Assembly: GCA_937975855.1 (NCBI GenBank) | Contig: CALJTT010000003.1 | Location: 26,901 to 90,900, forward strand | DNA: 64,000 bases | Direction of reading: 5' to 3' | From: Minisyncoccota bacterium | Lineage (GTDB): Bacteria; Patescibacteriota; Minisyncoccia; Phycocordibacterales; UBA918 | In this document: in pieces, positions 8,615 through 55,858 of the stretch | Layout: the number at the start of each line of letters is the position of its first letter | Numbering within the stretch: position 1 is the stretch's first letter | Made by a program: the position numbers and the translations under genes | The notes under the pieces: model-generated | The model's database searches: none | What the model was told of the DNA's origin: nothing | What the model saw: only the letters and a program-made list of their open reading frames with translations

Positions 8615-8622
8615 TGCGAAAT

Positions 8623-8650
8623 ATGATAGCATTTATTTAAAATTTGTCAA
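8623..8650 (-). promoter_or_regulatory. Promoter TTGACA-16 nt-TGCTATCAT, 8 nt upstream of sortase ATG 8614 (leaderless candidate)
   Basis: Minus-strand TTGACA = 8650-8645 and TGCTATCAT = 8631-8623. The -35 region is an inverted copy of the one at 8720. Confidence 0.5.
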
Positions 8651-18442: not shown

Positions 18443-20209
18443 TTAATCCTGCAAAAACCCTCCAGCCTGATGTTCCCATAGCTTGGCGTAGAGACCGCCG
18501 CCTGCAGCCAGTTCGTCGTGCGAACCATCCTCGATGATTTGTCCGTTTTCAAATACAAGAATCCTGTCCATCTTGCGTAGTGTTGATAAGCGGTGAGCGA
18601 CAGCGATCACAGTCTTGCCTTCCATCAGTTCTTCTAGAGCTGCTTGGATAGCCACTTCACTTTCACTATCGAGGGCGCTGGTCGCTTCGTCCAAAACAAG
18701 CAATGGTGCTTCTTTCAACATCGCGCGTGCGATGGCGACACGTTGTTTTTGTCCACCGGATAACTTCACTCCACGTTCACCAACCAGCGTGTTGTATTTT
18801 TCTGGTAACTGGTCGATGAACTCGTGTGCTTGGGCTCGTGTCGCAGCCAGGATCATTTCTTCTTCTGTAGCATCCGGCTTGCCGTACAGGATGTTCTCGC
18901 GGATGGTGCGGTGGAACAACATCGGCTCCTGCGGCACCAGGGCAATGTTTTGTCGCAGACTGTCCTGTGTCACCTGCGCGATGTTCTGACCATCGATCAT
19001 AATCTGTCCATACTGAATGTCGTGCTGACGCAGCAACAGAGAAACAAAGGTGGACTTCCCTGCACCAGATGGTCCAACCAGACCCACGCGCTCGCCTGGT
19101 TTGATATTGAGTGATAGTCGTTTGAAGATATCTTCCTCCTGGTACGCGAAAGTAACAGCTTGCCAGGTGATGGAGCCGGTTGGGACGGAGAGGTTGGCGG
19201 CGGAGGGATGGTCGGTGATTTCGTGGTTGATGAGGATATCTTGGAGGCCTTCTTCCATTTCTCCAAAAGCTTGGGAAAACGCGTCGAACGTTTTTCCAAT
19301 TGTGGTCAAGTTGTAAGCAACTTGAGTAACTAGTGTCAAAATTAATACCAATTCACCAGTTGTAGCCGTACCATTCTGCCAACTTTCTACTAAGATGTAG
19401 AACATCGCACTCGTTGCGGCAAACAAAATTGCTGAGTTTACCAACCTTGTTTTCTCAGAATATTTCCAAGTTCGTTCATGCTCTATCTTTCGTTTTGTAG
19501 TCAGCTCTTCTAAATCTAGTATCTCTTGACGCAAGCGAACATATTGTCTAGCAGCTTGAACGTTACTCAGCACGTCAGCAGTCCTGCCAGTTAACTTAGT
19601 TCGAGCTGCCGCATGCTTGCGAGACAATCGTCTTTTTTCCGGCGAAAGTTTTGCATTCAACACAACCATTACCGCTACCAACACCAAAAAAATGCCCGCT
19701 ACTTGCACGTTGACCGTTAGCATAAAAATAAAAGCGACCAAAAATGAAGTGAAGTTGCCTAGAATACTCCAAAAGAAATCAGGGATTATTTGACCAAAAC
19801 CACCAATCACATTTCCGAACTTGGTGAGAATGGAACCAGAAAATCTGTTAGAGAAATAAAAGTGACTATGGTTCAGTGTGTGTGCAGCCAACACATCAGA
19901 GCAACGTTTCATTGTCGGTGTCAGATATCTCATTCCTGTCACTGAAGATAATCGAAACAGTATTTGCACAATGAAAATAGCTAGCGGATACAGCAGGGCA
20001 TAAAATACGACGGTATCTGATTGGCCTGCCTCAGCCGCATCCACAATTAACTTAAACAAGTAACTAAGGCTCTGGTTAATTACTGACGCTCCAACAACAA
20101 TGAGTACCGTCAGGATAAAGTACAATTTGTAAGGCTGACTGACATACTGCAAAAAAGCCCAGGGCGTATTAGGAATATCTCCAGTATATGTGTTTTCTTG
20201 CTTTTCCAT
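18443..20209 (-). CDS. ABC exporter, fused permease/ATPase (MsbA-like)
   Basis: Six-TM N-terminal half. Walker A GPSGAGKST, signature LSGGQKQR, Walker B LLVLDEATSALD, H-loop AHRLST. Confidence 0.9.
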   Translation of the reverse strand: MEKQENTYTGDIPNTPWAFLQYVSQPYKLYFILTVLIVVGASVINQSLSYLFKLIVDAAEAGQSDTVVFYALLYPLAIFIVQILFRLSSVTGMRYLTPTMKRCSDVLAAHTLNHSHFYFSNRFSGSILTKFGNVIGGFGQIIPDFFWSILGNFTSFLVAFIFMLTVNVQVAGIFLVLVAVMVVLNAKLSPEKRRLSRKHAAARTKLTGRTADVLSNVQAARQYVRLRQEILDLEELTTKRKIEHERTWKYSEKTRLVNSAILFAATSAMFYILVESWQNGTATTGELVLILTLVTQVAYNLTTIGKTFDAFSQAFGEMEEGLQDILINHEITDHPSAANLSVPTGSITWQAVTFAYQEEDIFKRLSLNIKPGERVGLVGPSGAGKSTFVSLLLRQHDIQYGQIMIDGQNIAQVTQDSLRQNIALVPQEPMLFHRTIRENILYGKPDATEEEMILAATRAQAHEFIDQLPEKYNTLVGERGVKLSGGQKQRVAIARAMLKEAPLLVLDEATSALDSESEVAIQAALEELMEGKTVIAVAHRLSTLRKMDRILVFENGQIIEDGSHDELAAGGGLYAKLWEHQAGGFLQD

Positions 20210-20649: not shown

Positions 20650-21234
20650 CTACTTCACTGACACGCGGTTAATTTGAGCGATGTTGATATTCTCGCCAAA
20701 CTTTTGAATGCCTCCTGAGACCATTTCTGCGATAGTCGTTTCCGGGTTCTTGATAAAGTCTTGTTCCATCAAAATCTGATCTTTGAAGTATGCGTTGACC
20801 TTGCCTTCCATGATCTTTTCGTGCATATCTTCCGGCTTGCCTTCTAGCTCTGGAGCAAAAACTTCTTTAGCTTTCTCCAGCGCATCTTCTGGCATTTCAT
20901 CTCGATTGATGAACTTAGGGTCTGTTCCAGCTACTTGCAAAGCAATGTCTTTTGCCAGGGCAACAAATTCTTCGTTCTTTGACACAAAGTCAGTCTCACA
21001 AACAAGCAACACCGTCGCTGCGACTTCGTTGGTGTTGTGTACGTATACACCAACAGCGCCAGCGCCGAATTCTCGGTCAGATTTTTTCTCAGCTGCTTCG
21101 CTTCGCTTCTTCTTTAGGATGATGACAGCTTTGTCCATGTCTCCTTCTGCTTCAACCAATGCCTTCTTGCATTGCATGACTGAGATTCCAGTCTTCTCTC
21201 GTAGTTCTTTTAATTGTGCTGATGAGGTTTCCAT
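20650..21234 (-). CDS. tsf: Elongation factor Ts (short form)
   Basis: LKELREKTGISVMQCKKALVEAEGDMDKAV UBA-like N-terminus. Adjacent to rpsB, as in most bacteria. Confidence 0.9.
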   Translation of the reverse strand: METSSAQLKELREKTGISVMQCKKALVEAEGDMDKAVIILKKKRSEAAEKKSDREFGAGAVGVYVHNTNEVAATVLLVCETDFVSKNEEFVALAKDIALQVAGTDPKFINRDEMPEDALEKAKEVFAPELEGKPEDMHEKIMEGKVNAYFKDQILMEQDFIKNPETTIAEMVSGGIQKFGENINIAQINRVSVK

Positions 21235-27725: not shown

Positions 27726-27744
27726 GAATTCTCTCACTAACAGA

Positions 27745-27785
27745 AAAACGCCCCACGTTTTCACGAAGGGCGTTTTTTTTATTTT
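27745..27785. terminator. Bidirectional terminator (PfkB kinase / LpxC-like gene)
   Basis: AAAAACGCCC ... GGGCGTTTTTTTT, with T-runs readable on both strands. Confidence 0.6.
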
Positions 27786-27805
27786 TTAGAACGATCATAG
27801 GCGCG

Positions 27806-28615
27806 CTAGCCTGAACTGTTCGCGTGAACAAGGAGTTGCTCATTCGCAACCCTTCCCACAAGTTGCATATCCGTCGGATGTCCAGCAAACGCCGTCTCGA
27901 TCGATCCGCCCAACTGCGCGCCAGCCGGTCTGAGGTATTCGATAGCACCAAGTAAATCCAGAGCGCGATGTAGCGCCAGTTCCTTCAGTACAGCTCGCAG
28001 CCCTTCTTCGGTTCGAGCACGACGTAGCCAGACATGCTGATCGACAACACCATGCCATCTTGCATATGGCCACAACCACAACCTACCCATAGAACGGGCC
28101 GTTGCAATTCGCCTCAGATCATCGTTGCTTTCTAAAGAAACGCGAACTGTAATGCGTTCAGTTTTTGGATATTGAACCGAAACTGAGATGTTCAGTGGCT
28201 CAGATCCCGGTGTCCAAGTCAGAGTTTTTCTGCCCTCCAAAAAAGAGACTTTTTCAGAGACGGTGTAAACAGGCATATCTCGATTCTGCTCCAAAACGCT
28301 CTCTAAAGAGTCCCAGTGCAGCACTCCACCGTTTTCATAGGGCAATCCGTTTTTGCCGACCTCGATTTCAACACCTGACGCTCGGAGCAAATGCAATACG
28401 CCAAAGAGATGTTCAGGAATCAGCACACGGCGATTGCGGTCTCTGACATAGAGAGATCGAAACAGAAGACTAAAACACCCCATCTTCAGCGTATCCAGAC
28501 TCACACTGGCGTCACCACAACGCCACCAGACGCCGGGCGTTTCTACCCGACGTAAAGTAACTTTTGCTTGCATCCCCCAGTGGTTTCTACCAACAATTTC
28601 AGCAATTAACGTCAT
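27806..28615 (-). CDS. LpxC-family (UDP-3-O-acyl-GlcNAc deacetylase-like) metalloenzyme homolog
   Basis: Aligns by eye with E. coli LpxC landmarks: IPEHLFGVL (E78-H79), ARSMGRL (ARTFGFM), LHRALDLLGA (H238...D242), AGHPTD (H265). 269 aa. Preceded by GGAG 8 nt upstream of the ATG. Confidence 0.65.
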   Translation of the reverse strand: MTLIAEIVGRNHWGMQAKVTLRRVETPGVWWRCGDASVSLDTLKMGCFSLLFRSLYVRDRNRRVLIPEHLFGVLHLLRASGVEIEVGKNGLPYENGGVLHWDSLESVLEQNRDMPVYTVSEKVSFLEGRKTLTWTPGSEPLNISVSVQYPKTERITVRVSLESNDDLRRIATARSMGRLWLWPYARWHGVVDQHVWLRRARTEEGLRAVLKELALHRALDLLGAIEYLRPAGAQLGGSIETAFAGHPTDMQLVGRVANEQLLVHANSSG

Positions 28616-28719
28616 ATGACGATCTCCCTCTTCCAGATTTTACGCTCTAAAGGAAACACTAACAACTTAATTTAAAATTGCAACAGAAACGCCTAGCTTC
28701 TTTATATATTAAAAAAATA

Positions 28720-28756
28720 AAGATAAAAGAAAAACCCCCGCACGTATGCACGGGAG
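28720..28756 (-). terminator. Probable terminator after the 28783-29907 gene
   Basis: Minus-strand imperfect GC hairpin CCCGUGCAUACGUGCGGG followed by UUUUUCUUUUAUCUUUAUUUUUUU. Confidence 0.45.
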
Positions 28757-28782
28757 CTTTTTGAAGCAGATACTTTACTCCG

Positions 28783-29907
28783 TTATTTGGCGAAAAACGC
28801 TTGTACTTGTCGCTTTTCACCTTGAGGGCAGTAGTACAAAGCCGAATTGCGATCGTAGATCATGTGAGTGACCGCTTCCGTTGGCGTGAGCAACGGGAAA
28901 CCCAGACTTGGATTTATGTCCGCCGGCGAGGGATCGGATCTGTACGAAACCCGCAATGTACCTGATGGTGTTGTTGCGAGATTGACATTGTGCCCGTTGC
29001 ACGGAACAGTCACTGAAGGATAGGCCACAGTTCGTGCAGCCTGACCGTAGGTTGCCGCTGGCGCCGGTGTGTAAACCGAAGCTTGGGCAGATGGTCGGAC
29101 TCCCCAGACGGCTGCCTGCTGCTGGGCACCCTGCCAACTTGCAGTCGGCTGAGCGGGAGCATGAGCCGCCGCGGACGTGCCATAGTCGTACGTCGTTCCA
29201 AATCCTGCAGATGATACTGTCGGGATTGCAGCGGCGTAAGAGTTGGTAGCAGCGTAAGTCGGCGACGCCGACTGGTAGGTTGGCGTTGCGTAGGTGTAAG
29301 TCTGACTCGCCGGAGGCTTGCTGACATAAGAAACGGCTTGCCCAGCGCTGTAAGCCGAAGCTGACGTTCCGGAAGTCACCGAGTACGTAGGCTGAGCATA
29401 CGCGATACGGGCTGGTGGTGGCGCGGGCACGTACGCTGACTGCGACGGTGCCGAGGTCCACACTGGCGCTGCCGCGACGGTGTTACTGCGTTGAACAACC
29501 TGCGCGTTACTGGACCGCGTCAGGTGACCAGTCTCAACAACTCCGTTTACTCGTGTTACGCGTACTGGGTACGCATAATCTGCAGTCCCGACGTAAACCG
29601 GAACGATGGAGTATCCCCAGTAAGAATCGACTCGGTGTGAATCCCAGACGCCATTGGCGCGTTGGGTTTCAAGCGAATTAACACGCGCGCCGCCGGAAAT
29701 CGATACGTTGACAATTTGCGTAGACTGCTCGACGAGCCTTGAACCGTTACCAGACCAGCTGGCCGTCGGTGCAGCACGCTCTGCTTTTTCGCAGGCTTGC
29801 CAATCAGAATCGCTTGCAGAAGCCAAGCCCGAAAACCCGACAGCCGAAAATAATCCGATTGCGATAGAAAGAACTCCCGAACGAATCCGGGTAAGAACAT
29901 AATTCAT
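28783..29907 (-). CDS. Secreted Ala/Pro/Ser/Thr/Tyr-rich protein of unknown function
   Basis: Start at ATG 29907, preceded by AAGGAG at 8 nt and by TTGACT-17-TTTAAT. Signal peptide MNYVLTRIRSGVLSIAIGLFSAVGFSGLASA. Long low-complexity middle and a Cys-containing C-terminal domain. About 60% GC in sampled lines. Confidence 0.7.
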   Translation of the reverse strand: MNYVLTRIRSGVLSIAIGLFSAVGFSGLASASDSDWQACEKAERAAPTASWSGNGSRLVEQSTQIVNVSISGGARVNSLETQRANGVWDSHRVDSYWGYSIVPVYVGTADYAYPVRVTRVNGVVETGHLTRSSNAQVVQRSNTVAAAPVWTSAPSQSAYVPAPPPARIAYAQPTYSVTSGTSASAYSAGQAVSYVSKPPASQTYTYATPTYQSASPTYAATNSYAAAIPTVSSAGFGTTYDYGTSAAAHAPAQPTASWQGAQQQAAVWGVRPSAQASVYTPAPAATYGQAARTVAYPSVTVPCNGHNVNLATTPSGTLRVSYRSDPSPADINPSLGFPLLTPTEAVTHMIYDRNSALYYCPQGEKRQVQAFFAK

Positions 29908-29992
29908 GGTAGTCACTCCTTCAAATTTTGGCGAAACGCCGTGACCCTACTATTAAAGACCGTGAACTGTAATAAGTCAACCTGTTTTGGTT

Positions 29993-30589
29993 CTATTTGT
30001 AGACACAGACTTCCCCTGTTCCATTCAATCTCACAACATCCTTCGCGGCCTCGTGGGCGGAATTTCCTTCACCGAAATAAATGTCGATCAATAGTGACTC
30101 GTCGTGGCCGTTGGTAACGCCAATTGTGTCGGTGATTTTATATAAATTGCCAGTTGGGCCGCCGACCCGCAGCAGCGTACCTGGCGCTAGTGTATTGGAA
30201 GCGGCGGTGCCGGGTCGATCTGGAAAGTTGGGGTCGTACGCAACCAGACATTCGCCATGCGCGTCTAGTGGGCATGGCAGGTTGATGTGTACGTTTACCT
30301 TCCCGTCGCCATCGCTATCCCACAAACCGATAACGCCAAAGCGCTCGGTGATACCCATCCATTGCACTACAAACAACCGCAGGAAGTCGAAAGGCAAAAT
30401 ATCCCCCGCTGCTTTTACATAGTCTGTGTCGATCGGTGTGAAGTAGCCGGTCAAAGTCGCTGGCCTGATCTCGCAGCTGTTGGCCTGTACACTTGTAGTT
30501 GTGACATACACAGCTACCGCGACTGAAAAAGCCACGCCCACGTATAACATCCATCGTGTTTGTATCTGCTGCATAAAGTTAGAGTGCAT
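29993..30589 (-). CDS. Secreted 3D-domain (MltA/RlpA-like double-psi beta-barrel) protein
   Basis: N-terminal TM/signal, then VAYDPNFPDRPGT...LYKITDTIGVTNGHDESLLIDIYFGEGNSAHEAAKD, which matches the three-Asp 3D-domain pattern. Start uncertain (30589 or 30574). Confidence 0.6.
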   Translation of the reverse strand: MHSNFMQQIQTRWMLYVGVAFSVAVAVYVTTTSVQANSCEIRPATLTGYFTPIDTDYVKAAGDILPFDFLRLFVVQWMGITERFGVIGLWDSDGDGKVNVHINLPCPLDAHGECLVAYDPNFPDRPGTAASNTLAPGTLLRVGGPTGNLYKITDTIGVTNGHDESLLIDIYFGEGNSAHEAAKDVVRLNGTGEVCVYK

Positions 30590-32432
30590 CAGTCGAGGTC
30601 GCCAGCGTTAGTTCGGGTTCAACTGCTTCTTCTGTCGCAGGCACCTCTATCGGGTCTAGTTCTATTAAAACTTCATCATTAACTTTTTCCTCCAACTCTC
30701 GCTCCTCAATAGCCTCACCCAAGCTGGTCGTTTGGTCGACACCCATAAGTTCAATCATCTCTAGAGAGAAGCGTGGCTGCGGCTGGCTAGCCACAACCGT
30801 TTGAGATGTAGTAGTTGCAACGGGCTCTGAAGTACTGGCGAGCGATTGTGTGTCGACAGGCAGAGTCGTTAAAGCTGTGGTGGTTGCAAACATAGCTTCG
30901 ACCAGCGTCGTGGTTGCCACTACAAATGCATCTATGGGCGAAGTAGTCGTACCGTTGGCAGCATCAACCGATTTAACTTCTTCTGTTGTGGAAGCGGTTG
31001 TGGTGACGATCTTTTGTGATGTTGTGCTGACGAACGCCAAAACTCGCTCGTCGGGATTTTCAATAAAATTGATCAGCCCAGCATCAAGCTCCGGTCTTTC
31101 TCCGATGGTGTAAATAGAGGTTCCAAGTATTCCTGCAGCTTCCGCGTAGTTTCGAGATCGCTCAAATGATTCTGGGTAGTGACCCCAATCGTCCACCTCG
31201 CGTTCGCTGTCGAGCCAACCAATTCCCACCATGACGCGATCGGCAATGTCTGGCGCCATCTGCTGCCAAGCATCGACTTCCCGTTCCCAAATACCTTGGG
31301 TCGAGCTGTATTGCATGACGTGAATAACGTCGAGCAAATCACGTCTCAGCCAGGTCGTTGGATCTTGCTGGTAATGAAACGAGGTAGCGTCGAAAACTAG
31401 ACGAGGACTGTATGTTGCCTGGGTTCGCATTTCGTATATTTCAGTTTTACTATCCTCAATCGGAGTTGTAATGAACGGGTTGTCGGGAGTCGCCTCGTAC
31501 CACTCACGGAACCACTGTGGCGTCTCACCTTCCCAAGTTACCTCTGTTGTAGTGGCATTCAGATCACCCCAGCGCCCGCCAGCATAGCTGTACAGCAATG
31601 GAAAGACGGCCGCTGACAATTGATAGTCTTTGCTGGTAGACGCACTGACAGAATCAATCGCTGTCGAGATAATCTCAACTGTGTCTGTGATGCAGGCGGT
31701 CTTTTCTTCATCTGCCATTTCCCAACCAGGGAAACGAATATAGTCGAGTTCGATCCCAGCAAGCTGAGGATAGAGCTCCAGTACGGCTGTTACCCATGTC
31801 TGCTGCGCCTCACGTTCTTCTTCCTCGCACAGGTCAACCCAGATGGCTTCTTCAACCCACTGGTCTTCTGTCAATCTTTTTCCGTTGACGATCCAGGCAT
31901 GGACGTCGACATCCTCGGACGAGAACAAGTCGAGGGCAGCTGCAAAGTCATTATGGTTTCCTACTCCTCCACCGATCAACTCGCCAGACTCGTCGAACAT
32001 CGCTGGGAAGCGCAGATAGACTTCGGTTAGACCAAGTGCCTTGGCGGTTTCAAAAGTTTCGGCCAAAGGTGAGTTTGGATCAAGACTGTCCGTAGTCGAC
32101 GCCGTTGTAGACGCGGCGGTAGTGGAACTGGTGCTAGTAGATGCTGTCAGCGAGCCTGTCTCTGTCGTGGTCGCAATATTTAAATCTTGCTCAACACTAG
32201 ATGTCGCAGTCGAAGTAGCTACAGCTAAACTGGTGGTCGACACCTCTGACACTGTCGAGGTAGCGAAGGATGCGGTTGTGGTCGCAGTAGTACTTGAATA
32301 TTCTGTGATCACAACTACCTCGGGCACAGTCGACGCAATAGCCGTCGCCTCCAGCCACGCACCGCGTTCAGCTGCAAATAATTGCACTGGTAACAAAACA
32401 AAGAATAATAGAGTGGGTAATGTGTATTTCAT
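30579..32432 (-). CDS. Secreted Ser/Thr-rich protein with a putative glycoside-hydrolase-like TIM barrel (DUF4015/GHL-like)
   Basis: Signal peptide MKYTLPTLLFFVLLPVQLFA and T/S-rich linkers at both ends. The core has LAGIELDYIRFPGW, typical of the GHL/DUF4015 family. Confidence 0.5.
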   Translation of the reverse strand: MKYTLPTLLFFVLLPVQLFAAERGAWLEATAIASTVPEVVVITEYSSTTATTTASFATSTVSEVSTTSLAVATSTATSSVEQDLNIATTTETGSLTASTSTSSTTAASTTASTTDSLDPNSPLAETFETAKALGLTEVYLRFPAMFDESGELIGGGVGNHNDFAAALDLFSSEDVDVHAWIVNGKRLTEDQWVEEAIWVDLCEEEEREAQQTWVTAVLELYPQLAGIELDYIRFPGWEMADEEKTACITDTVEIISTAIDSVSASTSKDYQLSAAVFPLLYSYAGGRWGDLNATTTEVTWEGETPQWFREWYEATPDNPFITTPIEDSKTEIYEMRTQATYSPRLVFDATSFHYQQDPTTWLRRDLLDVIHVMQYSSTQGIWEREVDAWQQMAPDIADRVMVGIGWLDSEREVDDWGHYPESFERSRNYAEAAGILGTSIYTIGERPELDAGLINFIENPDERVLAFVSTTSQKIVTTTASTTEEVKSVDAANGTTTSPIDAFVVATTTLVEAMFATTTALTTLPVDTQSLASTSEPVATTTSQTVVASQPQPRFSLEMIELMGVDQTTSLGEAIEERELEEKVNDEVLIELDPIEVPATEEAVEPELTLATSTDAL

Positions 32433-32474
32433 CGTACTGCGCTGATGTCGTTCTGAATAAATCTTCTACGAGAG

Positions 32475-32505
32475 AAAATGCCCTTACCTTTTAATAATAA
32501 GGCAT
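32475..32505 (-). terminator. Probable terminator after the pentose-phosphate/glycolysis operon
   Basis: Minus-strand ATGCCTTA...TAAGGGCAT hairpin (one bulge) followed by TTTTCTCTC. Confidence 0.45.
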
Positions 32506-32537
32506 GGATAACAATATAATTGGTCTGCTGTGGAGAA

Positions 32538-33527
32538 TTACTCTACTACCCGCTTGCCGGCTGCGACGATACTGTCGACACCCATGCCGTAGTGTTTAAC
32601 CAATTCGTCTGGTTCTCCTGATTGACCGAACTGGTCGTCAACACCGATACGTGCGATGCGAGTTGGGTTGATCTCGGCGAGAGCTTCACACACTGCGCTA
32701 CCCATACCACCAGCGATCTGATGTTCTTCAACTGTTACCAAAGCGTCGTGTTCGGCGGCAAACACATCGAGAGCTTGTACGTCTAGCGGTTTGATAGTTG
32801 CCAAGTGCAGCACTGACACGCCGATTCCTTGTGTCTGCAGTTCGTGCGCGGCCATTAGTGAGTTGTATAAAAGTGAGCCGGTAGAAATGATTCCGACCTT
32901 TTTCTCTAAAGATTCATCACGGCTGAACATGCGCTGTGCTTTACCAATTTCAAATGGCGTGTCTTTGGTAGTGACAACTGGCGTTGCACTCCTACCTAGT
33001 CGGAAGTAAACCGGCCCTTCGTACTCTGCTGCAGCCAGAGTCACTTTCCTAGCCTCTTCGGCATCTGCTGGCGCCAGTACTACCATGTTTGGAACAACCC
33101 GCATGATGGCAATATCCTCGATTGCCTGATGAGTTGCTCCATCAGGACCAACTGAAACACCAGCATGAGCACCAACAATTTTTACATTAGCGTCGTTGTA
33201 AGCAACTGTGGTACGGATCTGCTCCCAGTTGCGCCCAGGCGAAAACATCGCATAAGAAGAGATGAAGGGAATCTTCCCCATCGCTGACATACCAGAAGCA
33301 ACGGAGGCAAGATTTTGCTCAGCTACGCCAATCTGCACAAACCGGTTGGGGAATTTCTCAGCAAAGTGATGCGTGCGCGTTGACTCGGTCAAATCGCAAC
33401 AAAGGGCGACCACGTTTTTGTCGCGCTTGCCAGCCTCTAGGAGACCTTCGCCATACCCGTTTCGGGTGGGAGATTTTTCTACTTCTCCCCCAGTTCTTAT
33501 TGCTTCGTGAATGTGGTCTGCAAACAT
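32538..33527 (-). CDS. tkt: Transketolase, C-terminal (pyrimidine-binding) subunit
   Basis: RNGYGEGLLEAG..., FVQIGVAEQNLASVASGMS, GPDGATHQAIEDIA. Confidence 0.9.
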   Translation of the reverse strand: MFADHIHEAIRTGGEVEKSPTRNGYGEGLLEAGKRDKNVVALCCDLTESTRTHHFAEKFPNRFVQIGVAEQNLASVASGMSAMGKIPFISSYAMFSPGRNWEQIRTTVAYNDANVKIVGAHAGVSVGPDGATHQAIEDIAIMRVVPNMVVLAPADAEEARKVTLAAAEYEGPVYFRLGRSATPVVTTKDTPFEIGKAQRMFSRDESLEKKVGIISTGSLLYNSLMAAHELQTQGIGVSVLHLATIKPLDVQALDVFAAEHDALVTVEEHQIAGGMGSAVCEALAEINPTRIARIGVDDQFGQSGEPDELVKHYGMGVDSIVAAGKRVVE

Positions 33528-33528
33528 A

Positions 33529-34425
33529 CTATGCGTGATTATCTTTATCGATCAAACCTGCCAGAGTGCGCAGCTTCTCGAGCGCTACCTTTGACTGCTC
33601 ACTCTTTGGAACCCGGTCTTCAGGACCTTTACCTGGAGGATTGCCGTGCCATCGGAAATCTCTTTCAAATACATCTACCCCCTTACTACCGATAGTATGC
33701 GCAATGATAACTGACGGCTTGCTGTATACCGCCTGCGCTTTGCCAATCGCGTCGTTGAGGCCGCGCATGCTGTGACCATCGACTTCTTGGACGTCGAATC
33801 CAAACGCTTCCCATTTATCAGCCAGTGGCTCTAGTGGCATCACGTCTTGGGTGTAGCCGTCGATTTGGAATCCGTTACGGTCGACAATGACAATAAGATT
33901 GTGAAGTTTTTCTTTACCAGCTAGCATCGCTGCTTCCCAGATCTGTCCTTCGTTCAATTCCCCGTCTCCTGTCAAACAGTAGAAAAACTTCGACGTGTAC
34001 GGGTTGTCCATTCGTTCGGCGATAGCCATTCCAACTGCTTGTGACAGCCCTGACCCTAGTGGCCCAGATGAAGTTTCAACACCCGGCAGAACTTCTTTGT
34101 GTGGGTGTCCTTGAAGGCGACCACCAAATTTCCTCAAGGTCATCAATTCTTCTACAGGGAAATAACCCGCATGCGCCAATGTGGCATATAGGACTGGACA
34201 GATGTGTCCATTTGACAAGATAACCCGATCTCTTTCTGGCCAATCTGGTTTTTTTGGATCGTGTTTAAGGGTTGAAAAATACAAAAGCGTAAACACATCG
34301 GCCATATCGAGCGGACCGGCGGTGTGGCCACTACCAGCCTCGGTGAGCATTTCGATAATACTTTGTCTAATTGTGTTCGCTTGTTTTTCAAGCCGGGTAG
34401 CTTCAGATGAGCTGATGTACTTCAT
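33529..34425 (-). CDS. tkt: Transketolase, N-terminal (TPP-binding) subunit
   Basis: GSGHTAGPLDMADV, CLTGDGELNEGQIWEA, VIVDRNGFQIDG. Start at ATG 34425, with TATACT 9 nt upstream. Confidence 0.9.
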   Translation of the reverse strand: MKYISSSEATRLEKQANTIRQSIIEMLTEAGSGHTAGPLDMADVFTLLYFSTLKHDPKKPDWPERDRVILSNGHICPVLYATLAHAGYFPVEELMTLRKFGGRLQGHPHKEVLPGVETSSGPLGSGLSQAVGMAIAERMDNPYTSKFFYCLTGDGELNEGQIWEAAMLAGKEKLHNLIVIVDRNGFQIDGYTQDVMPLEPLADKWEAFGFDVQEVDGHSMRGLNDAIGKAQAVYSKPSVIIAHTIGSKGVDVFERDFRWHGNPPGKGPEDRVPKSEQSKVALEKLRTLAGLIDKDNHA

Positions 34426-34470
34426 ATAACAATAAGTATAACGGGTCGACGGACACTTGCCCACCGATTG

Positions 34471-36659: not shown

Positions 36660-38294
36660 TTATGTGGCAGGGTTGTTATCCTCATCTTCGTCTCGATCTC
36701 TCTTGTAAAACAAGTACCAAAGAGACGCCAACGTTATAAATGGAACTAGAAGTAAGAGAGCCCACATCCAATACGCTGCTTGCCAATACCATTTCGCCAA
36801 GGTTGAACTGGTAGCGTTTGCCTCTCCATAGAAATTCACTGGTGTCTCGTAGCGACTGGCAACACGGGCGTCGTAGTCAAACACCTCAACTACGATAGCT
36901 GAAGGGCCAGCAAACATGATCGGGGCGATGGTTGCTTCGTACGCTTGTCGATCACTACTTTCACGTAGCAAAAACGAAAACGTATAACCTGAACCGCGCG
37001 GGTCGTAAATTGTGGCTACAATAGATTTGAATTGGCCGTCGATGGCTTCAATTGGCAACGAGATCGTAAACGGCTGGGTGCTGTCGAGCTCTAGTTCCTT
37101 GTTTGAAAATGCCCAAGTATCGTCTGTCTGAGTTACCGTAAAATCTCTGAGCCGAGGAAAACCTTCGTTTTCAAGAGTGCCTAACTGGGGCTGGTTTTCT
37201 TCTGTGGTTATAGTGACTCCTCCTCGACCGTCTTGAGTTGACGATTCACCTTGTCCCGCCGACGCTCCTGTAGAGCCGGCAAAACCACCTCTCGCGGCTG
37301 ACCTATCAACAACCGCTACTGCCCCAGAAGAAATCTGACCGTTCGGGTTGATCACAAATACTGAATAATAAACACGCGACCATTCGAGCAAAACGTTTTC
37401 GTCTCGAACTGTCTCTTGTCGCCCTTCATAGATAACAACGCCGTCATTTATGGATTGTGGGTAGCCAAAGTAATTACGCACTACGCGAACTGTCGCTCCA
37501 GGAAAAATGTCAGCCGGCAGTTCATAAGTTATGATGACATCATCTCCTTCCGGCGTGGCATTCAAGCGACTGACATTAGCTGGTGCAAAAGGAACCGAGT
37601 CATCCAGAGTTACAAAGGACCCTCGCTCCAGAACCGTCTGACCACCAGAGGGTGTGTAGCCTATAACTTCGTAATAATATTGCGTGGCAGGACTCAGATC
37701 ATCGAGCCAAACTGAGTGATCGGTTTTGTATTCGTTGCCAACAATATATGCAATCTCATAAGAACTGGTAAGGCCGATTCGCACTTCCACCTGAACGTTA
37801 CTATTTGTCTCCAGATTCAAAGCGGCGGTAGTAGTTCCAGGTATAACAACACTTGATTCCAAAATTACTCTAGCCTGAGTTGCTTCTCCGATACTCGGCT
37901 CAGGATCTGGTGGTATAAAAATATCAAGTGTAGACGTTGCTTCAGGCAAGGACAATATCGAATAGTTAGGAAACCCATCAAAAGCCGCCACTTCATAAAA
38001 ATAAGTCGTGGACGCCGACAGGCCGGTGTCGTTGTATGCTGTGGCCGTAGTGGTGGCAATAGCGAACCCGTCGCGGAAAACCACATAACCAAACACACCA
38101 AAGTTATCAGTCGAGGTCGACCAAGCAAGATTGATCTGGCTACTAGATACTGGCGTGATATTTTCGATAACTGGTGATGACGGGTCGATAGAATCAGTCG
38201 CGCCAAAGACTTTTATAGTAAAGTCGCTGGTTCCTTGCGCCCCAACCAACTGCGGCAGTAATAATATTAAAAATAGTGAAGCGAGTCTGATCAT
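36660..38294 (-). CDS. Secreted FN3-repeat protein with a C-terminal TM anchor
   Basis: Signal peptide MIRLASLFLILLLPQLVGA and three FN3-like modules (e.g. SSQINLAWSTSTDNFGVFGYVVFRDG...YFYEVAAFD). C-terminal helix WALLLLVPFITLASLWYLF + KRDRDEDED. ATGA overlap with the upstream gene. Confidence 0.75.
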   Translation of the reverse strand: MIRLASLFLILLLPQLVGAQGTSDFTIKVFGATDSIDPSSPVIENITPVSSSQINLAWSTSTDNFGVFGYVVFRDGFAIATTTATAYNDTGLSASTTYFYEVAAFDGFPNYSILSLPEATSTLDIFIPPDPEPSIGEATQARVILESSVVIPGTTTAALNLETNSNVQVEVRIGLTSSYEIAYIVGNEYKTDHSVWLDDLSPATQYYYEVIGYTPSGGQTVLERGSFVTLDDSVPFAPANVSRLNATPEGDDVIITYELPADIFPGATVRVVRNYFGYPQSINDGVVIYEGRQETVRDENVLLEWSRVYYSVFVINPNGQISSGAVAVVDRSAARGGFAGSTGASAGQGESSTQDGRGGVTITTEENQPQLGTLENEGFPRLRDFTVTQTDDTWAFSNKELELDSTQPFTISLPIEAIDGQFKSIVATIYDPRGSGYTFSFLLRESSDRQAYEATIAPIMFAGPSAIVVEVFDYDARVASRYETPVNFYGEANATSSTLAKWYWQAAYWMWALLLLVPFITLASLWYLFYKRDRDEDEDNNPAT

Positions 38295-39058
38295 AGCGGC
38301 AGTGCAGTTACAGTTGTCGTAGCATAATAAACGCCAGTCTCAACATTTGCTCCGCTGGAAATACCCACCCTAAAATGCACTGAAGTTGTCGCTCCTAGGG
38401 GATGATTAGATCCAACACCGCGAGCGATCTCAGTTGCACTAGTAGTCAGTCCAGTCCAGCAAGCAAACGCAGTGTCTCCAGTTCCGACACCACAGCTGGC
38501 GCCGTTGTCCTTATAAGCGCTGGCGATGTCGTCGCCCTCGGGAGTAAAGCCAAACTCGGCTGTCGCTGCCGGGACTGAGAACGTGAAGTCTGCACTACCG
38601 ACCTCTGTGTAGTCGGCAATAGAAGCACCGTCCGTTCGCTGCATCGCTGGATCATTTTCCGCTTCGATAGTCAGTTGATACCCGGCTGGGCTGTCGGTCA
38701 CAACTGTAAAGGTCGTAGAACCATTTGATGTACCGCCAGTTATTCCTGGCAAGTCTACATCCATCACAATCGGACCGCCCCCAGCTAGACTTAAAAAAAC
38801 TTCTTGCATTTGTTGGTAGCCTGCTTTTAGAGAAAAGTTCGTACTATCCGACGGACCGGTTGCGATCTCACCCACAGTGCTTTCTTGCACATACGAGGCA
38901 GAGTTGGAGAGTCCGCCGCCGACATTAATACTGTCGCTTTGCAATTGGTAATTATTACTACTGCGCACTTGTGCGTGCGACACAGAAAAACTACTTACCA
39001 ATAAAATTGTCACAACAAGACTGATACATGTTGTTGTAATAGCAAACGATAATCTCAT
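38291..39058 (-). CDS. Secreted beta-rich protein, paralog A of the locus (WxL-protein-like layout but no WxL motif)
   Basis: Signal peptide ...SFSVSHA|Q. Segments shared with the 244-aa paralog: GITGGTSNGSTTFTVVTDSPAGYQLTI, a C-x10-CW loop (CGVGTGDTAFACW), GATTSVHFRV...YYATTTVTALPL. Confidence 0.65.
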   Translation of the reverse strand: MRLSFAITTTCISLVVTILLVSSFSVSHAQVRSSNNYQLQSDSINVGGGLSNSASYVQESTVGEIATGPSDSTNFSLKAGYQQMQEVFLSLAGGGPIVMDVDLPGITGGTSNGSTTFTVVTDSPAGYQLTIEAENDPAMQRTDGASIADYTEVGSADFTFSVPAATAEFGFTPEGDDIASAYKDNGASCGVGTGDTAFACWTGLTTSATEIARGVGSNHPLGATTSVHFRVGISSGANVETGVYYATTTVTALPL

Positions 39059-39061
39059 GCG

Positions 39062-40051
39062 TTAGGCTTTTCGTTTAAATTCAAATGTTTTGAGGAACAA
39101 CCTGATCAAAAATACAACCATGAACACTACTCCAAAAATAAGTAACAGCAGTTTCCAAGGTAGCACCCAGAAAGTAACCTCTACAGTATCCAGTATATCA
39201 TCGTAGCCGCGGTTGACTGTCGCTTTGGCTGTGTAGCGTCCAAATAAAAATTCTCGATCCCAGGTTACTTCACGAGTACGGATGGACTGCGGCAGAACAA
39301 ACCACGGTTCCATTTCAACTCGACCGACCTCTTCACCAAAGACGTTGGCGATGGTTAGTTCTCCGTATGGGTTCACATGGATAGTACCGGTGTTTTCATA
39401 AGCGATAGCTAGTTTAATCGGCCCCGACTGGTACCACCATTGACTAGGTAAAGTTGAAAGGTCGATTGTTTCACCACTTCTACTTATATCTCCTTCTACA
39501 GTAAGAAAAACGTGTGAACCTACGCGGGCGATGATTGGATTGCGCGGCGCGACTTCATTTCCATCTTCACCCAATTGAACAGTTGATACCAATACACTAC
39601 CGTAGTAACCACCAGGCTCGGCGTCTGGAGGAACAGTAATGGTTACTGGGATGCGAGCACGCTCGCCAAGGTTCAAAGTAAAAGTGTCCTCAGGAAACGA
39701 AACGTAATCACGAATACTGTATGGTCCACGCTCTCCCTCGATGACTTGCAGCGCTGCGCTACCGTCGGCCGTACCAGAAATATCTTCTACCTGAAGTTTG
39801 AAAATTCGCTGCTCACTGATTCGGTTAGTAACCGTAACCTCGCGCACCATACTCTCGCCGGGCTTGAGAGAGACCTCTGCCCTACCAGGTCCGACTACAA
39901 AATCACCCACGTCAATTCGGCCAGAAATAGTTTCTGTGACATACCAAGGGTCTACAACCACGGGAGTAGTCAAAGGTTCATCCGTTTGTGCAAATACAAA
40001 AAATGGAGAAAAGGCTAGGAGTAATGTCGGCCAAACTCTCTTTGCGATCAT
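39062..40051 (-). CDS. Two-domain surface protein with a C-terminal TM anchor (DUF916/DUF3324-like, inferred)
   Basis: Signal peptide MIAKRVWPTLLLAFSPFFVFA and two beta-sandwich-like halves (GRAEVSLKPGESMVREVTVTN...; ARVGSHVFLTVEG...YENTGTIHVNPYGE). C-terminal WKLLLLIFGVVFMVVFLIRLF + KTFEFKRKA. The size and layout are those of WxL-cluster CscA-type proteins. Confidence 0.5.
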   Translation of the reverse strand: MIAKRVWPTLLLAFSPFFVFAQTDEPLTTPVVVDPWYVTETISGRIDVGDFVVGPGRAEVSLKPGESMVREVTVTNRISEQRIFKLQVEDISGTADGSAALQVIEGERGPYSIRDYVSFPEDTFTLNLGERARIPVTITVPPDAEPGGYYGSVLVSTVQLGEDGNEVAPRNPIIARVGSHVFLTVEGDISRSGETIDLSTLPSQWWYQSGPIKLAIAYENTGTIHVNPYGELTIANVFGEEVGRVEMEPWFVLPQSIRTREVTWDREFLFGRYTAKATVNRGYDDILDTVEVTFWVLPWKLLLLIFGVVFMVVFLIRLFLKTFEFKRKA

Positions 40052-40066
40052 ATCAACAAGGATACG

Positions 40067-40801
40067 CTAGAGGTTGTAGAGTGACAAGGTCGCTGTAGCC
40101 GTGTAAGTCTCAGCCACAGGTGTTGGCGTAGCTCCACTTGGCACAGTTACATTGAACTGGACTGAAGAAGTTGCTCCAGTGACAGCAGCGCTACTTCGTT
40201 CAACAATTCGAAAGGCAGCCGTATCTGGCGCTTTCCAACATGGGACCGTCTGTATTCCGCCGGTGTTACAGTCAGATCCGTCGTTTAGGAAAGACTGGTC
40301 TGTATCAAGCGTGCTGGACGAAGTTACTGTGTAAGCAAGCTGTGCAGAGGCACTAGTAGTGTAACCAAATGACGGTTCACCAGTAACGTCTCCCTCATAG
40401 TCGACAATAGCTTCACTTGCTGACACGTCTCCGATCATAGCTTCCGTCGTTCCGTTGTTAAAAAAGGCAATGTCAACATAGTATCCAGCGCCGTTGTTGG
40501 TTAGTACTACAAACTGAGTAGTCCCAGTAGCCTGTCCACCTGTAACACCACCAATGTCTCCAGTCATCGTTACGTCTGCCGGTTCTACCAAGAACGAGCT
40601 TTCAGCTGTGATAGTTTGTCGAATGATGAACTCTGAAGTGTCTTCCTGACTACGAGTAATTTGTGGCTCTAATATACTAAATAAAACTGCAAATCCAACT
40701 AGTGCACCGAAAGCAACGACGGTTGCATTTTGGGCAGCTGGGGTAATGTATGTGGCTTTCATACTACGTATAGTATCAGCTTTGGGGTTGACTTTACTCA
40801 T
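40067..40801 (-). CDS. Secreted/anchored beta-rich protein, paralog B of the locus
   Basis: N-terminal hydrophobic segment VVAFGALVGFAVLFSIL, GVTGGQATGTTQFVVLTNNGAGYYVDI, a C-x11-CW loop (CNTGGIQTVPCW), GATSSVQFNV...YTATATLSLYNL. Confidence 0.65.
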   Translation of the reverse strand: MSKVNPKADTIRSMKATYITPAAQNATVVAFGALVGFAVLFSILEPQITRSQEDTSEFIIRQTITAESSFLVEPADVTMTGDIGGVTGGQATGTTQFVVLTNNGAGYYVDIAFFNNGTTEAMIGDVSASEAIVDYEGDVTGEPSFGYTTSASAQLAYTVTSSSTLDTDQSFLNDGSDCNTGGIQTVPCWKAPDTAAFRIVERSSAAVTGATSSVQFNVTVPSGATPTPVAETYTATATLSLYNL

Positions 40802-40824
40802 ATGGAAGGGCTTGTTGGGGATAA

Positions 40825-43800
40825 TTAAACTGTTTCTTCCTCTACTATTTCGTCAGTTTCAACCGGTATTTCAGACTCTGATTCAACCAAATTTTCTTCC
40901 GGGACATTCTCGTCTATGACAACCTCTTCGTCAGAACTTTCAGCTGGAGACAGGGCTTCTTCTATGAGTGTCTCTGGTAACACTGATGCCGTAGTGGTCG
41001 CCTCTCCTTCAATCTCTTCAGGCATATTGACAACTACAGGATCCTCTTCGGCTTGTGTGTCAGTATTACTGGCGCTAATTGTAGCTGGTTCAGAGTCGAC
41101 TTCCTCAGCGATCACTCCCAACCCTTCCTCTTCACTTTCTATAACCGGCTCTGGGTCTTCTCCTATGACCGTAGGTGCACTTACACTTGTACCTAACTGC
41201 GACTCAATCGCCTCAAGGCGTGATCGCAAATCTTTGTTTTCTTTCTCTAACAAGTCCACCCTTTCTGTATTCCCCGTCACCACCTCCCACATCTCCCGCA
41301 ACGCCTCTAGGATGTAGAACGGTAGCGAACGGAAGTCCACCTGGCGGTACCCATCATTGTTGCGAGACACTAGTTCTGGGAACTGTTCTTCCACGTCTTG
41401 GGCGATTAAACCTGTGACTACACTAGCCTGACTCTTTTTGTACGTGTCGGCTGCTAGTTCGTTCCACTGGTATGTGACAGGGTCTAGGGCGACCAGACGT
41501 TCGATGTAGCTGCGGCCGTCGCTAGAGAGCGGGTCGATGTTCGTCTTTAGACGTTCGTCTGAGGTACAGGTTCCCCCGATATTTCCTCCAGCGAAGTCTT
41601 CGATGCAGCCGTTGGTACCGCTATTTCCGACACGGATATCTCCGTATACTTGAAGTTTTTGGGCGGGGGTGGTGGTGCCGATACCGATGTTGCCGGTAAT
41701 CAGATCTCCAAAGATAGCATCAGCAATATTCAACTGATGAGAAGCGGTAGGTGAAGTAGCCTCGACAGAGTAACCAATCAAAACATTGTCAGAACCAGTC
41801 TTGTGATTTCTACCTGCTTGGTGACCAATGAAAATATTATTGTCAGCACCAGTTTCTAGAGATAGGCCTGACTGATAACCAAAAGCTGTAAGATTTGCAA
41901 CTTCAGCACCAACTACCGCACCTCTACCAGTCTGGTATCCAAACACTGTAGCAGCAGTAGACGTCGAAATATTCCTAAGTGTATTGTAGCCAAAAGCAGA
42001 TACAAAGTTACTTGTGTTTTGGTATGCACTATTACGGCCAAAGGCAGAAACAGAGCTGCCTGTGTTTTCGAAGGCGCTATTTTGACCAAAAGCGGATACA
42101 AAGTCACCTTTGTTTTGGTATGCACTATTACGGCCAAAGGCAGAAACAGAGCTGCCTGTGTTTTGGTATGCACTAACTGTTCCAAATGCTGAAAGGCTGT
42201 CTCCTAAATTTTGGTAACCGGCCTCGGATCCTACAACCGTGATTTGATCACTCACAGTAGTAGAACCAGATTCATATCCAGCAAAGTATCCTAGCGCTAC
42301 ATTGTCCAAGCCTGTACCATTAAAAGAATTCCCTGCACTTACCCCCAAAGCGAGAGAATCAGAAGTCACGTTATAAATACCATCAGTCAGGTCATCTACA
42401 GACAGAGTCTCCGACAGAGCGCTACTGGCGTCAGTCCATTCTACACCAGAGCCATTTGACGAGAACAACTGCCCGACAGTACCAGCACTATAGGCATTGT
42501 CGTAAAGAGAGCCGGTCAGCATAGCATTCCCGTCGACAGTTAGTTTAGTGAAGGGAGTGGTGGTGCCGATGCCGATGTTGCCGGAAGAATCAATCGTCAA
42601 ACGTTCAATTGAATTTGTCCATAGTGAAAAATCATCGTCAGAATGGTTGTAGGCAAGTCTACCACGACTAGAGTTTTCTATATCACCAAAATAAATACTT
42701 CCCACAGCAGAGTTTCCGGACAAAATAGTCATACCAGCGTTTCCAGTTTGATCAATCAAAAAATCATCAGCAGAATTTGACGGATCTCTGCCTGTGGGAG
42801 AATTTTGTGTCTGGATATGAAGACCTGCAGCTGGACTACTTGTTCCAATCCCCACAAACCCCGTACTAAGATCACTAAAGAGAACGTTACCAATATTAAG
42901 CTCCTCCGAGGCTATGGGTGAAGAAGTCTCCGCGCTGTAACCAATCAAGATGTTGTCACTACCTGTAGTAACATTTTTTCCAGCCTCAAAACCAATAAAG
43001 AGATTATTGTCAGCGCCGGTCTGCAGGCTTCGTCCAGCACGGTAACCAAAAGCTGTAAGATTTGCCACTTCCGCCCCACCTAGGTCACCTTGCCCGGCCT
43101 GATAACCAAATACAGTAGCTGCCGTGGAAGTAGATATGTATCGAAGAGTACTGTGTCCGAAAGCAGAAACTCCAGTACCTACGTTTTTATAGGCACTGTT
43201 TACACCAACAGCAGTGAGAGCAGTGCCTGTATTATTAAAGGCGCTGTTTACTCCCATAGCCGTAAGACCATTTCCCCTATTACCTTCTCCAGCATTTACC
43301 CCCATAGCGGTGAGTGAGCCCCCCGTATTTGAAACAGCAGCGTTTACACCGATAGCAGTTGCGTTATCTCCTTTGTTAGAAAAAAGAGAGTTATATCCCA
43401 TAGCTGTATTGTCAGCGCCGGTGTTTTCGTACCCAGCCTGATATCCGATCAGCGTAATCCGATCTGAGTCAGTGGTACTTCCAGATTCAAAGCCAGCCTG
43501 GTATCCAATAGCGATGTTACCGAGGCCAGCTGCATTAAACGCGTTCCCAGCGTCCTCTCCCAGAGCTAGTGAGTCACTCGTACCGTTGTACAGCCCATCG
43601 GAGAGGTCATTGATTGCTAGCACGCCGGATAACGCCGCGTTAGCATCCACCCAATCAATGCCGGCCCCAGTGCTAGAAAGGAGCTGACCGTTAGTACCAG
43701 CGCTGTATGCGTTGTCATAGAGACCCCCAGTGAACATGGCGTCACCGGCGACGGTTAGTTTGGTGAAGGGGGTGGTGGTGCCGATTCCGATGTTGCCAGT

Positions 43801-55736: not shown

Positions 55737-55745
55737 ATGGCAGAA

Positions 55746-55754
55746 ACTATAGCA
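55746..55754 (-). promoter_or_regulatory. Extended -10 TGCTATAGT, 9 nt upstream of ATG 55736 (leaderless candidate)
   Basis: Minus-strand TGCTATAGT-ttctgccat-ATG. Confidence 0.45.
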
Positions 55755-55802
55755 CGCAGCCTTACTAGTCGGCAGTCTAGACGAACGCGCGAACAGTTGG
55801 TG

Positions 55803-55840
55803 CAAAAGGGTGGCGGGGCTTTTGCCCCGCCACCCTTTTG
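55803..55840. terminator. Terminator after the 55859-56587 methyltransferase gene
   Basis: 17-bp perfect stem CAAAAGGGTGGCGGGGC / GCCCCGCCACCCTTTTG with loop TTTT. Confidence 0.8.
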
Positions 55841-55858
55841 CTTCTTTCAGACCTAAAA

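Follow-up and report, generated by a model that had tools for sequence, protein, structure and literature searches.

What does a gene bearing the landmarks of LpxC do in DNA that holds no other gene for lipid A? The question is raised by a single open reading frame (ORF) in a 64,000-nucleotide stretch of contig CALJTT010000003.1, the whole of which we call the window, and whose host we place in the Candidate Phyla Radiation (CPR). An original prediction, made from the letters alone, had seen an LpxC-family deacetylase without lipid A partners and had suggested that it might be a repurposed zinc deacetylase. The gene is the following feature.

27806..28615, minus strand: LpxC-like coding sequence, 269 amino acids (aa), no signal peptide; core residues E68, H69, H216, D220 and H246; subfamily marks R217, A224 and D249.

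We find that this ORF encodes a real homolog of LpxC, far beyond chance resemblance, and that the protein is not an orthodox lpxC product. On balance we favor the view that it is an active, accessory and repurposed zinc amidohydrolase, which retains the fold and catalytic machinery of LpxC and would act on a substrate other than UDP-3-O-acyl-GlcNAc (UDP, uridine diphosphate; GlcNAc, N-acetylglucosamine).

Homology to LpxC is apparent in profile, single-sequence and structural comparisons. The Pfam model PF03331 (LpxC), which is the sole Pfam match of the protein, scores 48.1 bits (E=1.4e-12) against a gathering cutoff of 27, a significant result in the profile search that had been proposed as a check, and the alignment spans residues 12-256, equivalent to profile positions 16-266 of 268. 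Aquifex aeolicus LpxC chains are matched at E~7e-8 in a single-sequence search. The landmarks read earlier from the translation are confirmed as IPEHL (E68, H69), LHRALD (H216, D220) and AGHPTD (H246); LLGA (A224) is also found, and the PxxDG motif of LpxC is retained. A template-free AlphaFold2 model built on 81 relatives recovered the two-domain LpxC fold, with a mean predicted local distance difference test (pLDDT) score of 94.3 and a predicted template modelling (pTM) score of 0.92. When the model was compared with the PDB by Foldseek, the top 50 matches were all LpxC (best E 1.8e-17), with template modelling (TM) scores of 0.69-0.76, root-mean-square deviations (rmsd) of 4.3-5.3 A and identities of 18-21%. 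Neither a signal peptide nor a membrane segment was detected.

Assignment to the orthodox enzyme is a different matter. The NCBIfam equivalog model TIGR00325 (lpxC) gives the protein 25.4 bits where 187.25 are required, and none of 81 family members comes near this cutoff (best E 5.9e-11). A word-indexed search of 5.8 billion proteins retrieved the LpxC-like protein alone, and an exhaustive HMMER search of 1.84 billion cluster representatives produced 100 matches at E<=1e-3, the nearest of them 41% (P0002), 37% and 35% identical. Approximately 88 of the 96 full-length matches carry a common non-canonical signature, in which E-H is kept, the HKxxD of LpxC becomes HRxxD, GD becomes LGA followed by a few inserted residues, and GHxLN becomes GHxxD. 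Six weak matches are canonical (ARTF, HKxLD, GDL), and a seventh, P0089, is canonical by its hidden Markov model (HMM) score. Sequences that lay outside both training sets scored 167-316 bits on an HMM of the subfamily and 22-56 bits on an HMM of canonical LpxC, with the order reversed for P0089. The phylogeny against bona fide LpxC that had been suggested bears out the separation: in a Poisson-corrected neighbor-joining tree, the split between canonical LpxC and the subfamily was recovered in 89 of 100 bootstraps, and the LpxC-like protein grouped with P0002 and P0003, within the subfamily, in 95 of 100. A profile of the subfamily aligns over its full length with the solved Aquifex LpxC (E=1.6e-24), and this end-to-end alignment with solved LpxCs indicates a sister family within the LpxC fold.

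The family is apparently rare, patchy and undescribed. It amounts to about 90 sequence clusters, all of them metagenomic, and those examined hold one to four sequences each, on one to seven contigs. Its sole named member is labelled at NCBI as 'hypothetical protein [Candidatus Paceibacterota bacterium]', and in the literature outside subscription journals we found no description of an LpxC-like family in CPR bacteria, whether under that name or as Patescibacteria, Saccharibacteria or Parcubacteria.

Is the catalytic center intact, and has the substrate site been kept? Residues were mapped onto Escherichia coli LpxC, the sequence of which was checked against PDB chain 4mqy_A, with residue roles taken from published work (PMC10254716). 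Conservation figures refer to an alignment of 81 family members with a mean column identity of 24%. The correspondence, with the E. coli residue given first, is as follows.

H79, H238 and D242, zinc ligands: H69, H216 and D220; 100% of the family.
E78, general base: E68; 96% of the family.
H265, general acid: H246; 100% of the family.
K239: R217; Arg in 98% of the family.
D246, of the GD motif and partner of H265: A224; Ala in 77% of the family, Asp in none of 81.
N268: D249, three residues after the catalytic His; Asp in 98% of the family.
T191, oxyanion helper, in the ARTF motif: S175 (ARSM); not conserved, with T in 35%, P in 25%, S in 22% and A in 11%.
F161, uracil stacking: V147; Val or Ile in the family.
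D160 and K262: S146 and F243; variable in the family.
H19: deleted, the His19 loop being one residue shorter; deleted in the family.
L62 and C63: R53 and S54; Arg in 64% and 51% of the family.
K143, diphosphate-contacting: K130; varies across the family.

Zinc ligands and the Glu/His pair are conserved at 96-100% in this alignment of metal and catalytic residues, another of the checks proposed earlier. The invariance of H69, H216, D220 and H246 at a mean column identity of only 24% points to purifying selection on the catalytic core. The loss of Asp246 from the GD motif, also remarked upon earlier, is real, and Asp at the canonical position was found in two subfamily-like sequences only, P0051 and P0066. 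Beyond this, the alignment shows that the change from GD to GA runs through the whole family and goes together with a new Asp at His+3, rather than being a one-off. In the model, DSSP places D249 on helix 246-258, the same helix as the catalytic H246. We infer that the His-Asp dyad has been rewired, the Asp having been relocated from the GD motif to His+3 (D249). The UDP/uracil pocket (Lys143, Asp160, Phe161, Lys239, Lys262 and His19 in E. coli LpxC) is not kept overall; K130 and R217 remain basic, and every position of the pocket except R217 varies across the family.

In LpxC, the beta-alpha-beta unit of Insert II provides the acyl-chain tunnel (Met195, Ile198, Phe212, Val217). The corresponding region of the family lacks the GGSxxN and NxxGLRF tunnel motifs. 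Most members carry GWP...GWPH...WP in their place, the clade of the window's protein carries a shorter SMGRLWLWPYARWHGVVDQHVW, and Trp residues average 2.9 per Insert II in the family versus 0.25 in canonical LpxC. At Insert II, DSSP of the model assigns a helix of 9 residues (179-187), then a loop and a helix of 26 residues (203-228), and recognizes no beta-alpha-beta unit; a replaced Insert II agrees with the modest similarity of the model to real LpxCs (TM about 0.73, rmsd about 4.7 A). Insert II is also the least conserved part of the family.

If the protein is not an orthodox LpxC, how does its gene come to stand in this genome? The answer lies in the segment between the genes for a PfkB kinase and the C-terminal half of a split transketolase (Tkt-C), which contains the LpxC-like gene and three others.

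27726..32537, no strand: lineage-specific insertion of 4.8 kb, between the stop codons of PfkB (27725) and Tkt-C (32538); four genes.
28783..29916, minus strand: islet gene, 377 aa, with an N-terminal hydrophobic segment; rich in Ser, Thr, Ala, Pro, Tyr and Gln; no family match.
29993..30589, minus strand: islet gene, 198 aa, with an N-terminal hydrophobic segment; no family match.
30579..32432, minus strand: islet gene, 617 aa, with a signal-peptide-like N-terminus; no family match.

A metagenome scan with the adjoining gene for fructose-bisphosphate aldolase (FBA) retrieved 79 loci, none of which contains an LpxC-like ORF of either the subfamily or the canonical type. In six close relatives (L016, L019, L020, L021, L023 and L067; FBA 83-86%, PfkB 87-91% and DNA about 72-78% identical), collinearity with the window extends for about 20 kb or as far as the contig reaches, the order being GAPDH-RpiB-Rpe-TktN-TktC-PfkB-FBA-L25-SLT-RF-S2-EF-Ts. 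Homology at the DNA level ends at the Tkt-C stop codon (about 32537-32553) and, for five of the six relatives, at that of PfkB (about 27724), and the spacing between the two genes is 143-546 bp in the six relatives versus 4.81 kb in the window. More distant relatives (FBA 57-62%) keep Tkt-C next to PfkB, separated by 0.6-2.9 kb of other DNA in which no LpxC-like gene occurs, so that gain in the window's lineage is the parsimonious reading. The LpxC-like gene is accessory, recently inserted and dispensable in close relatives. It cannot be counted among the stable genes of this lineage, a point that the original prediction did not reach.

The three other islet proteins had no match in Pfam, NCBIfam, PADLOC or PHROGs, and no homolog of them adjoins other LpxC-like genes or occurs in the relatives' loci. 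The islet has a GC content of 0.51 versus 0.474, with individual genes at +1.2 to +3.2 standard deviations, and its tetranucleotide signature is not an outlier. No integrase was found in the islet, and there are no convincing flanking repeats. An origin from a mobile element or a defence system was considered and rejected, given the lack of an integrase, of any tblastn match in phage or plasmid collections and of PADLOC or PHROG matches. As a separate observation, the Tkt-C/PfkB junction varies across Paceibacteria relatives (including L034, L036, L042 and L058) and may be a hot spot at which integrations or indels recur.

Within the islet, the LpxC-like gene is framed by signals of its own.

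28624..28634, minus strand: Shine-Dalgarno-like GGAAGAGGGAG, 8 nt upstream of the ATG at 28615.
28637..28665, minus strand: sigma-70-like match TTGTTA-17-TAAAAT (9/12) in an AT-rich spacer; a consensus match only.
28730..28761, minus strand: terminator-like hairpin of 14 pairs with a T run; ends the upstream gene and separates the LpxC-like gene from the three upstream genes.
27751..27768, minus strand: terminator-like hairpin with a T run, 38 nt after the LpxC-like stop codon.

Shuffled sequence yields, on average, 1.0 equally good sigma-70-like site in the scanned region. With promoter-like and terminator-like signals of its own, the LpxC-like gene looks monocistronic.

Which organism carries the insertion, and could it make lipid A? 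SecA encoded in the window shares 70-73% identity with proteins that carry the NCBI labels Ca. Nomurabacteria, Kaiserbacteria, Paceibacteria and Parcubacteria, which identifies the host as a member of the Paceibacteria (Parcubacteria/OD1) within the CPR. A genome study of Parcubacteria found lpxC, kdsA and fatty acid synthesis to be absent, and described CPR envelope chemistry as unclear (PMC5220378). Core genes in the window include DnaE, ThrRS, GyrB, PheST, EF-Ts, S2, RF, L25, GatB, Obg and SecA; sugar metabolism is represented by class II FBA, the PfkB kinase, the split transketolase, Rpe, RpiB and GAPDH, and the envelope by MurB, a sortase, a Wzy_C/TPR protein and polysaccharide genes. The earlier statement that no lpxA, lpxD, lpxB or fabZ lies nearby extends to all 64 kb, where a Pfam search of every ORF >=150 aa revealed none of these, nor any other lipid A or outer-membrane gene. 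Nothing beyond L31, a small membrane protein and part of an asparagine synthase lies in the gaps between the ORFs, and short extensions of the window (short Logan contigs with polysaccharide genes) contain no lipid A genes. Two envelope genes can be placed as follows.

7892-8632, minus strand: sortase (Pfam).
53478-55874: Wzy_C/TPR protein (Pfam).

These two, and the absence of outer-membrane genes, sustain most of the envelope context described earlier; the LPXTG-like signal that formed part of that description was not recovered, since no LPXTG-type sorting signal turned up when window ORFs >=150 aa were scanned, by a simple heuristic, for (L/I/V/S)PxT/S/A/G-G/A/S/N with a hydrophobic tail behind it. 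The sortase is left without a candidate substrate in the window, and its sorting motif may be non-canonical or its substrates may lie elsewhere.

A scan of a genome collection with the LpxC-like protein returned a single match, an identical sequence in a metagenome-assembled genome (MAG) labelled 'uncultured Saprospiraceae bacterium'. The contig concerned (L001, CALDTK010000111.1, 4216 bp) is 100% identical to part of the locus. Saprospiraceae were rejected as the host because SecA and gene content assign the 107 kb contig to Paceibacteria. A binning error is the likeliest source of the 4.2 kb copy; conceivably, the copy reflects the co-abundance of an episymbiont with a Bacteroidota host.

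Do the genes around other family members hint at a function? Contexts were compared for eight other members (P0002, P0003, P0008, P0015, P0031, P0110, P0111, plus query copies), nine contexts in all. The other members sit amid unrelated housekeeping genes: malic enzyme and type IV pilus genes; MgsA; RecG and FtsH; PNPase and a Cu-ATPase; LeuRS, TsaD and Mur ligases; and ribosomal proteins with GrpE and DnaK. Neither an lpx neighbor nor a conserved partner gene was found in the nine contexts. Malic enzyme, a CsoR-like repressor and a phosphoribosyltransferase recur, each twice only. Directly downstream of the gene for P0002, the 41% identical homolog, lies a 330-aa ORF with a weak LAGLIDADG_3 match (L005, 4931-5923, plus strand), which may be a homing endonuclease.

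We propose that the protein is a cytoplasmic metal-dependent amidohydrolase, most likely an N-deacetylase. By analogy with LpxC, a Zn2+ ion held by H69, H216 and D220 would activate water, E68 would serve as the general base, and H246 as the general acid or an electrostatic catalyst. The carboxylate partner of H246 would have moved from the Asp246 position, now A224, to D249 on the same helix, and the acyl-tunnel unit of Insert II would have given way to a short Trp/His-rich helix and loop together with an N-terminally extended helix. The gene reached its Paceibacteria (CPR) lineage within the 4.8 kb insertion, apparently as a monocistronic accessory unit. That the protein is a working metal-dependent amidohydrolase seems to us likely, because four catalytic residues are invariant and the exchanges of Asp246 for Ala and of Asn268 for Asp are family-wide. 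Its substrate is very probably something other than UDP-3-O-acyl-GlcNAc, since uracil contacts and tunnel motifs have been lost, the host belongs to the CPR and the gene is dispensable in relatives. The repurposed zinc deacetylase of the original prediction emerges as the best reading because the catalytic zinc center is conserved, and it gains further support from the failure of the equivalog model, the distinct subfamily and the rebuilt substrate site. As to the substrate itself, our best guess, and the weakest step of the proposal, is an N-acetylated anion that probably bears phosphate, an amino-sugar derivative for example; a sugar-type compound of this kind is suggested by the basic residues K130, R217 and R53, kept or gained at positions that contact phosphate, and by the richness of the new insert in aromatic residues.

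A simpler account would be that the protein is a genuine, divergent LpxC that performs the committed step in the synthesis of lipid A, or of a lipid A-like glycolipid, the remaining Raetz pathway genes lying in another part of the genome. Its score exceeds the Pfam threshold for LpxC, its fold is fully that of LpxC and its zinc and acid/base core is intact, and only part of the host genome has been seen. We nevertheless judge this account very improbable. The protein falls far below the equivalog cutoff (25.4 versus 187.25 bits) and has lost UDP/uracil pocket residues along with the GGSxxN and NxxGLRF tunnel motifs; the host is one of the Paceibacteria, from which lpxC, kdsA and fatty acid synthesis are reportedly absent (PMC5220378); and the gene has no lpx neighbor in nine contexts and is missing from six collinear relatives, unlike an essential envelope pathway. 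A decaying relic or pseudoenzyme, no longer hydrolytic and either heading for loss or serving as a binding or regulatory protein, would explain the loss of Asp246, the unconserved Thr191, the patchy distribution, dispensability in close relatives, the lack of a functional partner in the neighborhood and a nearest homolog that is only 41% identical. Decay is difficult to reconcile, however, with an intact ORF provided with a ribosome-binding site and promoter-like and terminator-like sites, with a confidently predicted fold, or with four invariant and three >=90% conserved core residues across 81 sequences, which would be unexpected without selection for catalysis. The loss of Asp246 is, moreover, matched by a 98%-conserved Asp at His+3, and we regard a relic as quite unlikely.

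A further alternative concerns the substrate, which might be lipid-linked: a polyprenyl-diphosphate-linked N-acetyl sugar destined for a surface glycopolymer, or a lipid A precursor or lipopolysaccharide (LPS) fragment taken from a diderm host, with the Trp-rich Insert II acting as a lipid-binding or membrane-facing element. Basic residues at two diphosphate-contacting positions (K130, R217) where uracil contacts are lost, the aromatic-rich Insert II, co-insertion with three secreted or surface proteins and the polysaccharide genes of the window all fit this idea. So do the lack of fatty acid synthesis in CPR bacteria (PMC5220378) and the copy of the locus in a MAG from a diderm group, a probable binning error that could reflect co-abundance. 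Yet family members show no conserved link to glycosyltransferases, to flippases or, in other genomes, to the three islet proteins. A strong terminator-like hairpin stands between the gene and the secreted proteins of the islet, the protein has no membrane segment, and the most variable part of the family is Insert II, which would be odd for a region that binds a fixed lipid tail. A lipid-linked substrate is unlikely in our estimation.

Several points weigh against an active, repurposed amidohydrolase. The Thr191 equivalent is a Ser that is unconserved in the family, so that lowered or different chemistry is possible. The contact between H246 and D249 and the absence of an acyl tunnel are read from sequence and secondary structure only, and the MAFFT alignment is uncertain within Insert II. 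No conserved neighbor favors any particular substrate, including the cell-wall glycopolymer and the host-derived molecule of the original prediction, the taxonomic placement of the family rests on two members, and the host genome seen amounts to 64 kb plus a few kb, leaving space elsewhere for lipid A genes. We would suggest, tentatively and with a little less than even confidence, that this is the first recognized LpxC-fold family outside lipid A biosynthesis: a rare accessory, apparently gained by insertion and so far seen in Patescibacteria/CPR, with its zinc center kept, its dyad rewired and its tunnel replaced by an aromatic pocket for a new substrate unrelated to lipid A. A bolder version, framed at the level of the family, is that it descended from a lipid A pathway of CPR ancestors, which would bear on the debate over diderm ancestry; the recent insertion in the window argues against the status of a vertical relic in this genome.

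Other features of the window deserve brief mention. The PheS ORF (14640-15362, minus strand) encodes at most 240 aa, comprising the catalytic core only, with the Pfam tRNA-synt_2d match beginning at profile position 12 and the usual N-terminal extension missing, and EF-Ts (20650-21234, minus strand) is only 194 aa long; both fit CPR-style protein reduction. Transketolase is split into N- and C-terminal genes (32538-34464, minus strand), as it is in six of six close relatives. An ABC exporter adjoining tRNA-Thr (18443-20209, minus strand) is 80% conserved in L016 and is replaced in L019 and L022 by two tandem ABC genes (45-54% identity), marking a variable spot in the collinear region. At 36660-45462 (minus strand), a 1545-aa protein with a Peptidase_S74 domain, which acts as an intramolecular chaperone in endosialidases and tail fibres, precedes four secreted proteins, of which one matches a WxL-interacting peptidoglycan-binding domain weakly. 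The four are kept in close relatives at 33-70% identity, and this conservation makes the region look like a conserved surface-structure cluster, not a prophage.

What follows for the use of lpxC in genome surveys, where it serves as a marker for LPS or an outer membrane (e.g. PMC5007114, PMC5220378)? Because the match described here represents a family of its own, with scores far below the equivalog cutoff, a Pfam-level LpxC match in a CPR or other monoderm genome should not count as evidence of lipid A synthesis. The family may also represent a natural experiment in re-specifying the LpxC active site, with the core kept, the dyad apparently rewired and the tunnel apparently replaced, and as such it is relevant to the enzymology of LpxC and the design of its inhibitors. 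If our reading holds, organisms with an envelope chemistry described as unclear (PMC5220378) gain a further accessory enzyme. The scope of these implications is limited by the rarity of the family and the dispensability of the gene in close relatives.

How, finally, does the LpxC-like protein compare with known systems? With canonical LpxC (EC 3.5.1.108; TIGR00325; 1P42, 4MDT) it shares the two-domain fold, the zinc ligands and the Glu/His pair. Its description as shorter than typical LpxC holds against the E. coli enzyme (305 aa) and not against Aquifex LpxC (PDB chains of 267-282 aa), to whose length class it belongs at 269 aa. In contrast to canonical LpxC, it has HRxxD, GA and GHxxD in place of HKxxD, GD and GHxxN; Phe161, Asp160, Lys262 and His19 are not kept; and a Trp-rich Insert II stands where GGSxxN and NxxGLRF would be. 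Canonical lpxC is often found beside fabZ, lpxA or lpxD, whereas the LpxC-like gene has no such neighborhood, resides in a CPR host and is dispensable in relatives.

Zinc-dependent N-acetylglucosaminyl deacetylases of unrelated folds include LmbE/PIG-L enzymes (MshB, BshB), NagA and the CE4 peptidoglycan deacetylases. The chemistry that we propose would be the same as theirs (metal-activated water, a carboxylate base and a His acid), and MshB, BshB and NagA are, like the predicted location of our protein, cytoplasmic. There is no tie of sequence or fold to any of them; the Pfam match and the top 50 structural matches of the LpxC-like protein are all LpxC.

The closest published precedent is found in the Bacillota, in which orphan or paralogous 'lpxC2' genes occur in both monoderm and diderm members (Desulfofarcimen acetoxidans, Peptococcaceae DCMF and Sporomusa; PMC11448272 and its supplement). 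Their hosts have no other lpx genes, and the authors read them as vestigial or repurposed (PMC11448272). They cluster with the LpxCs of Limnochordaceae strains, Dictyoglomota, Cyanobacteriota and Deinococcota and lie in a conserved syntenic region (PMC11448272). Unlike Bacillota lpxC2 (WP_015756737.1) as that paper describes it, the LpxC-like family shows no conserved synteny, and it splits from canonical LpxC in 89 of 100 bootstraps; what the two have in common is a lone lpxC homolog that stands outside any LPS cluster.

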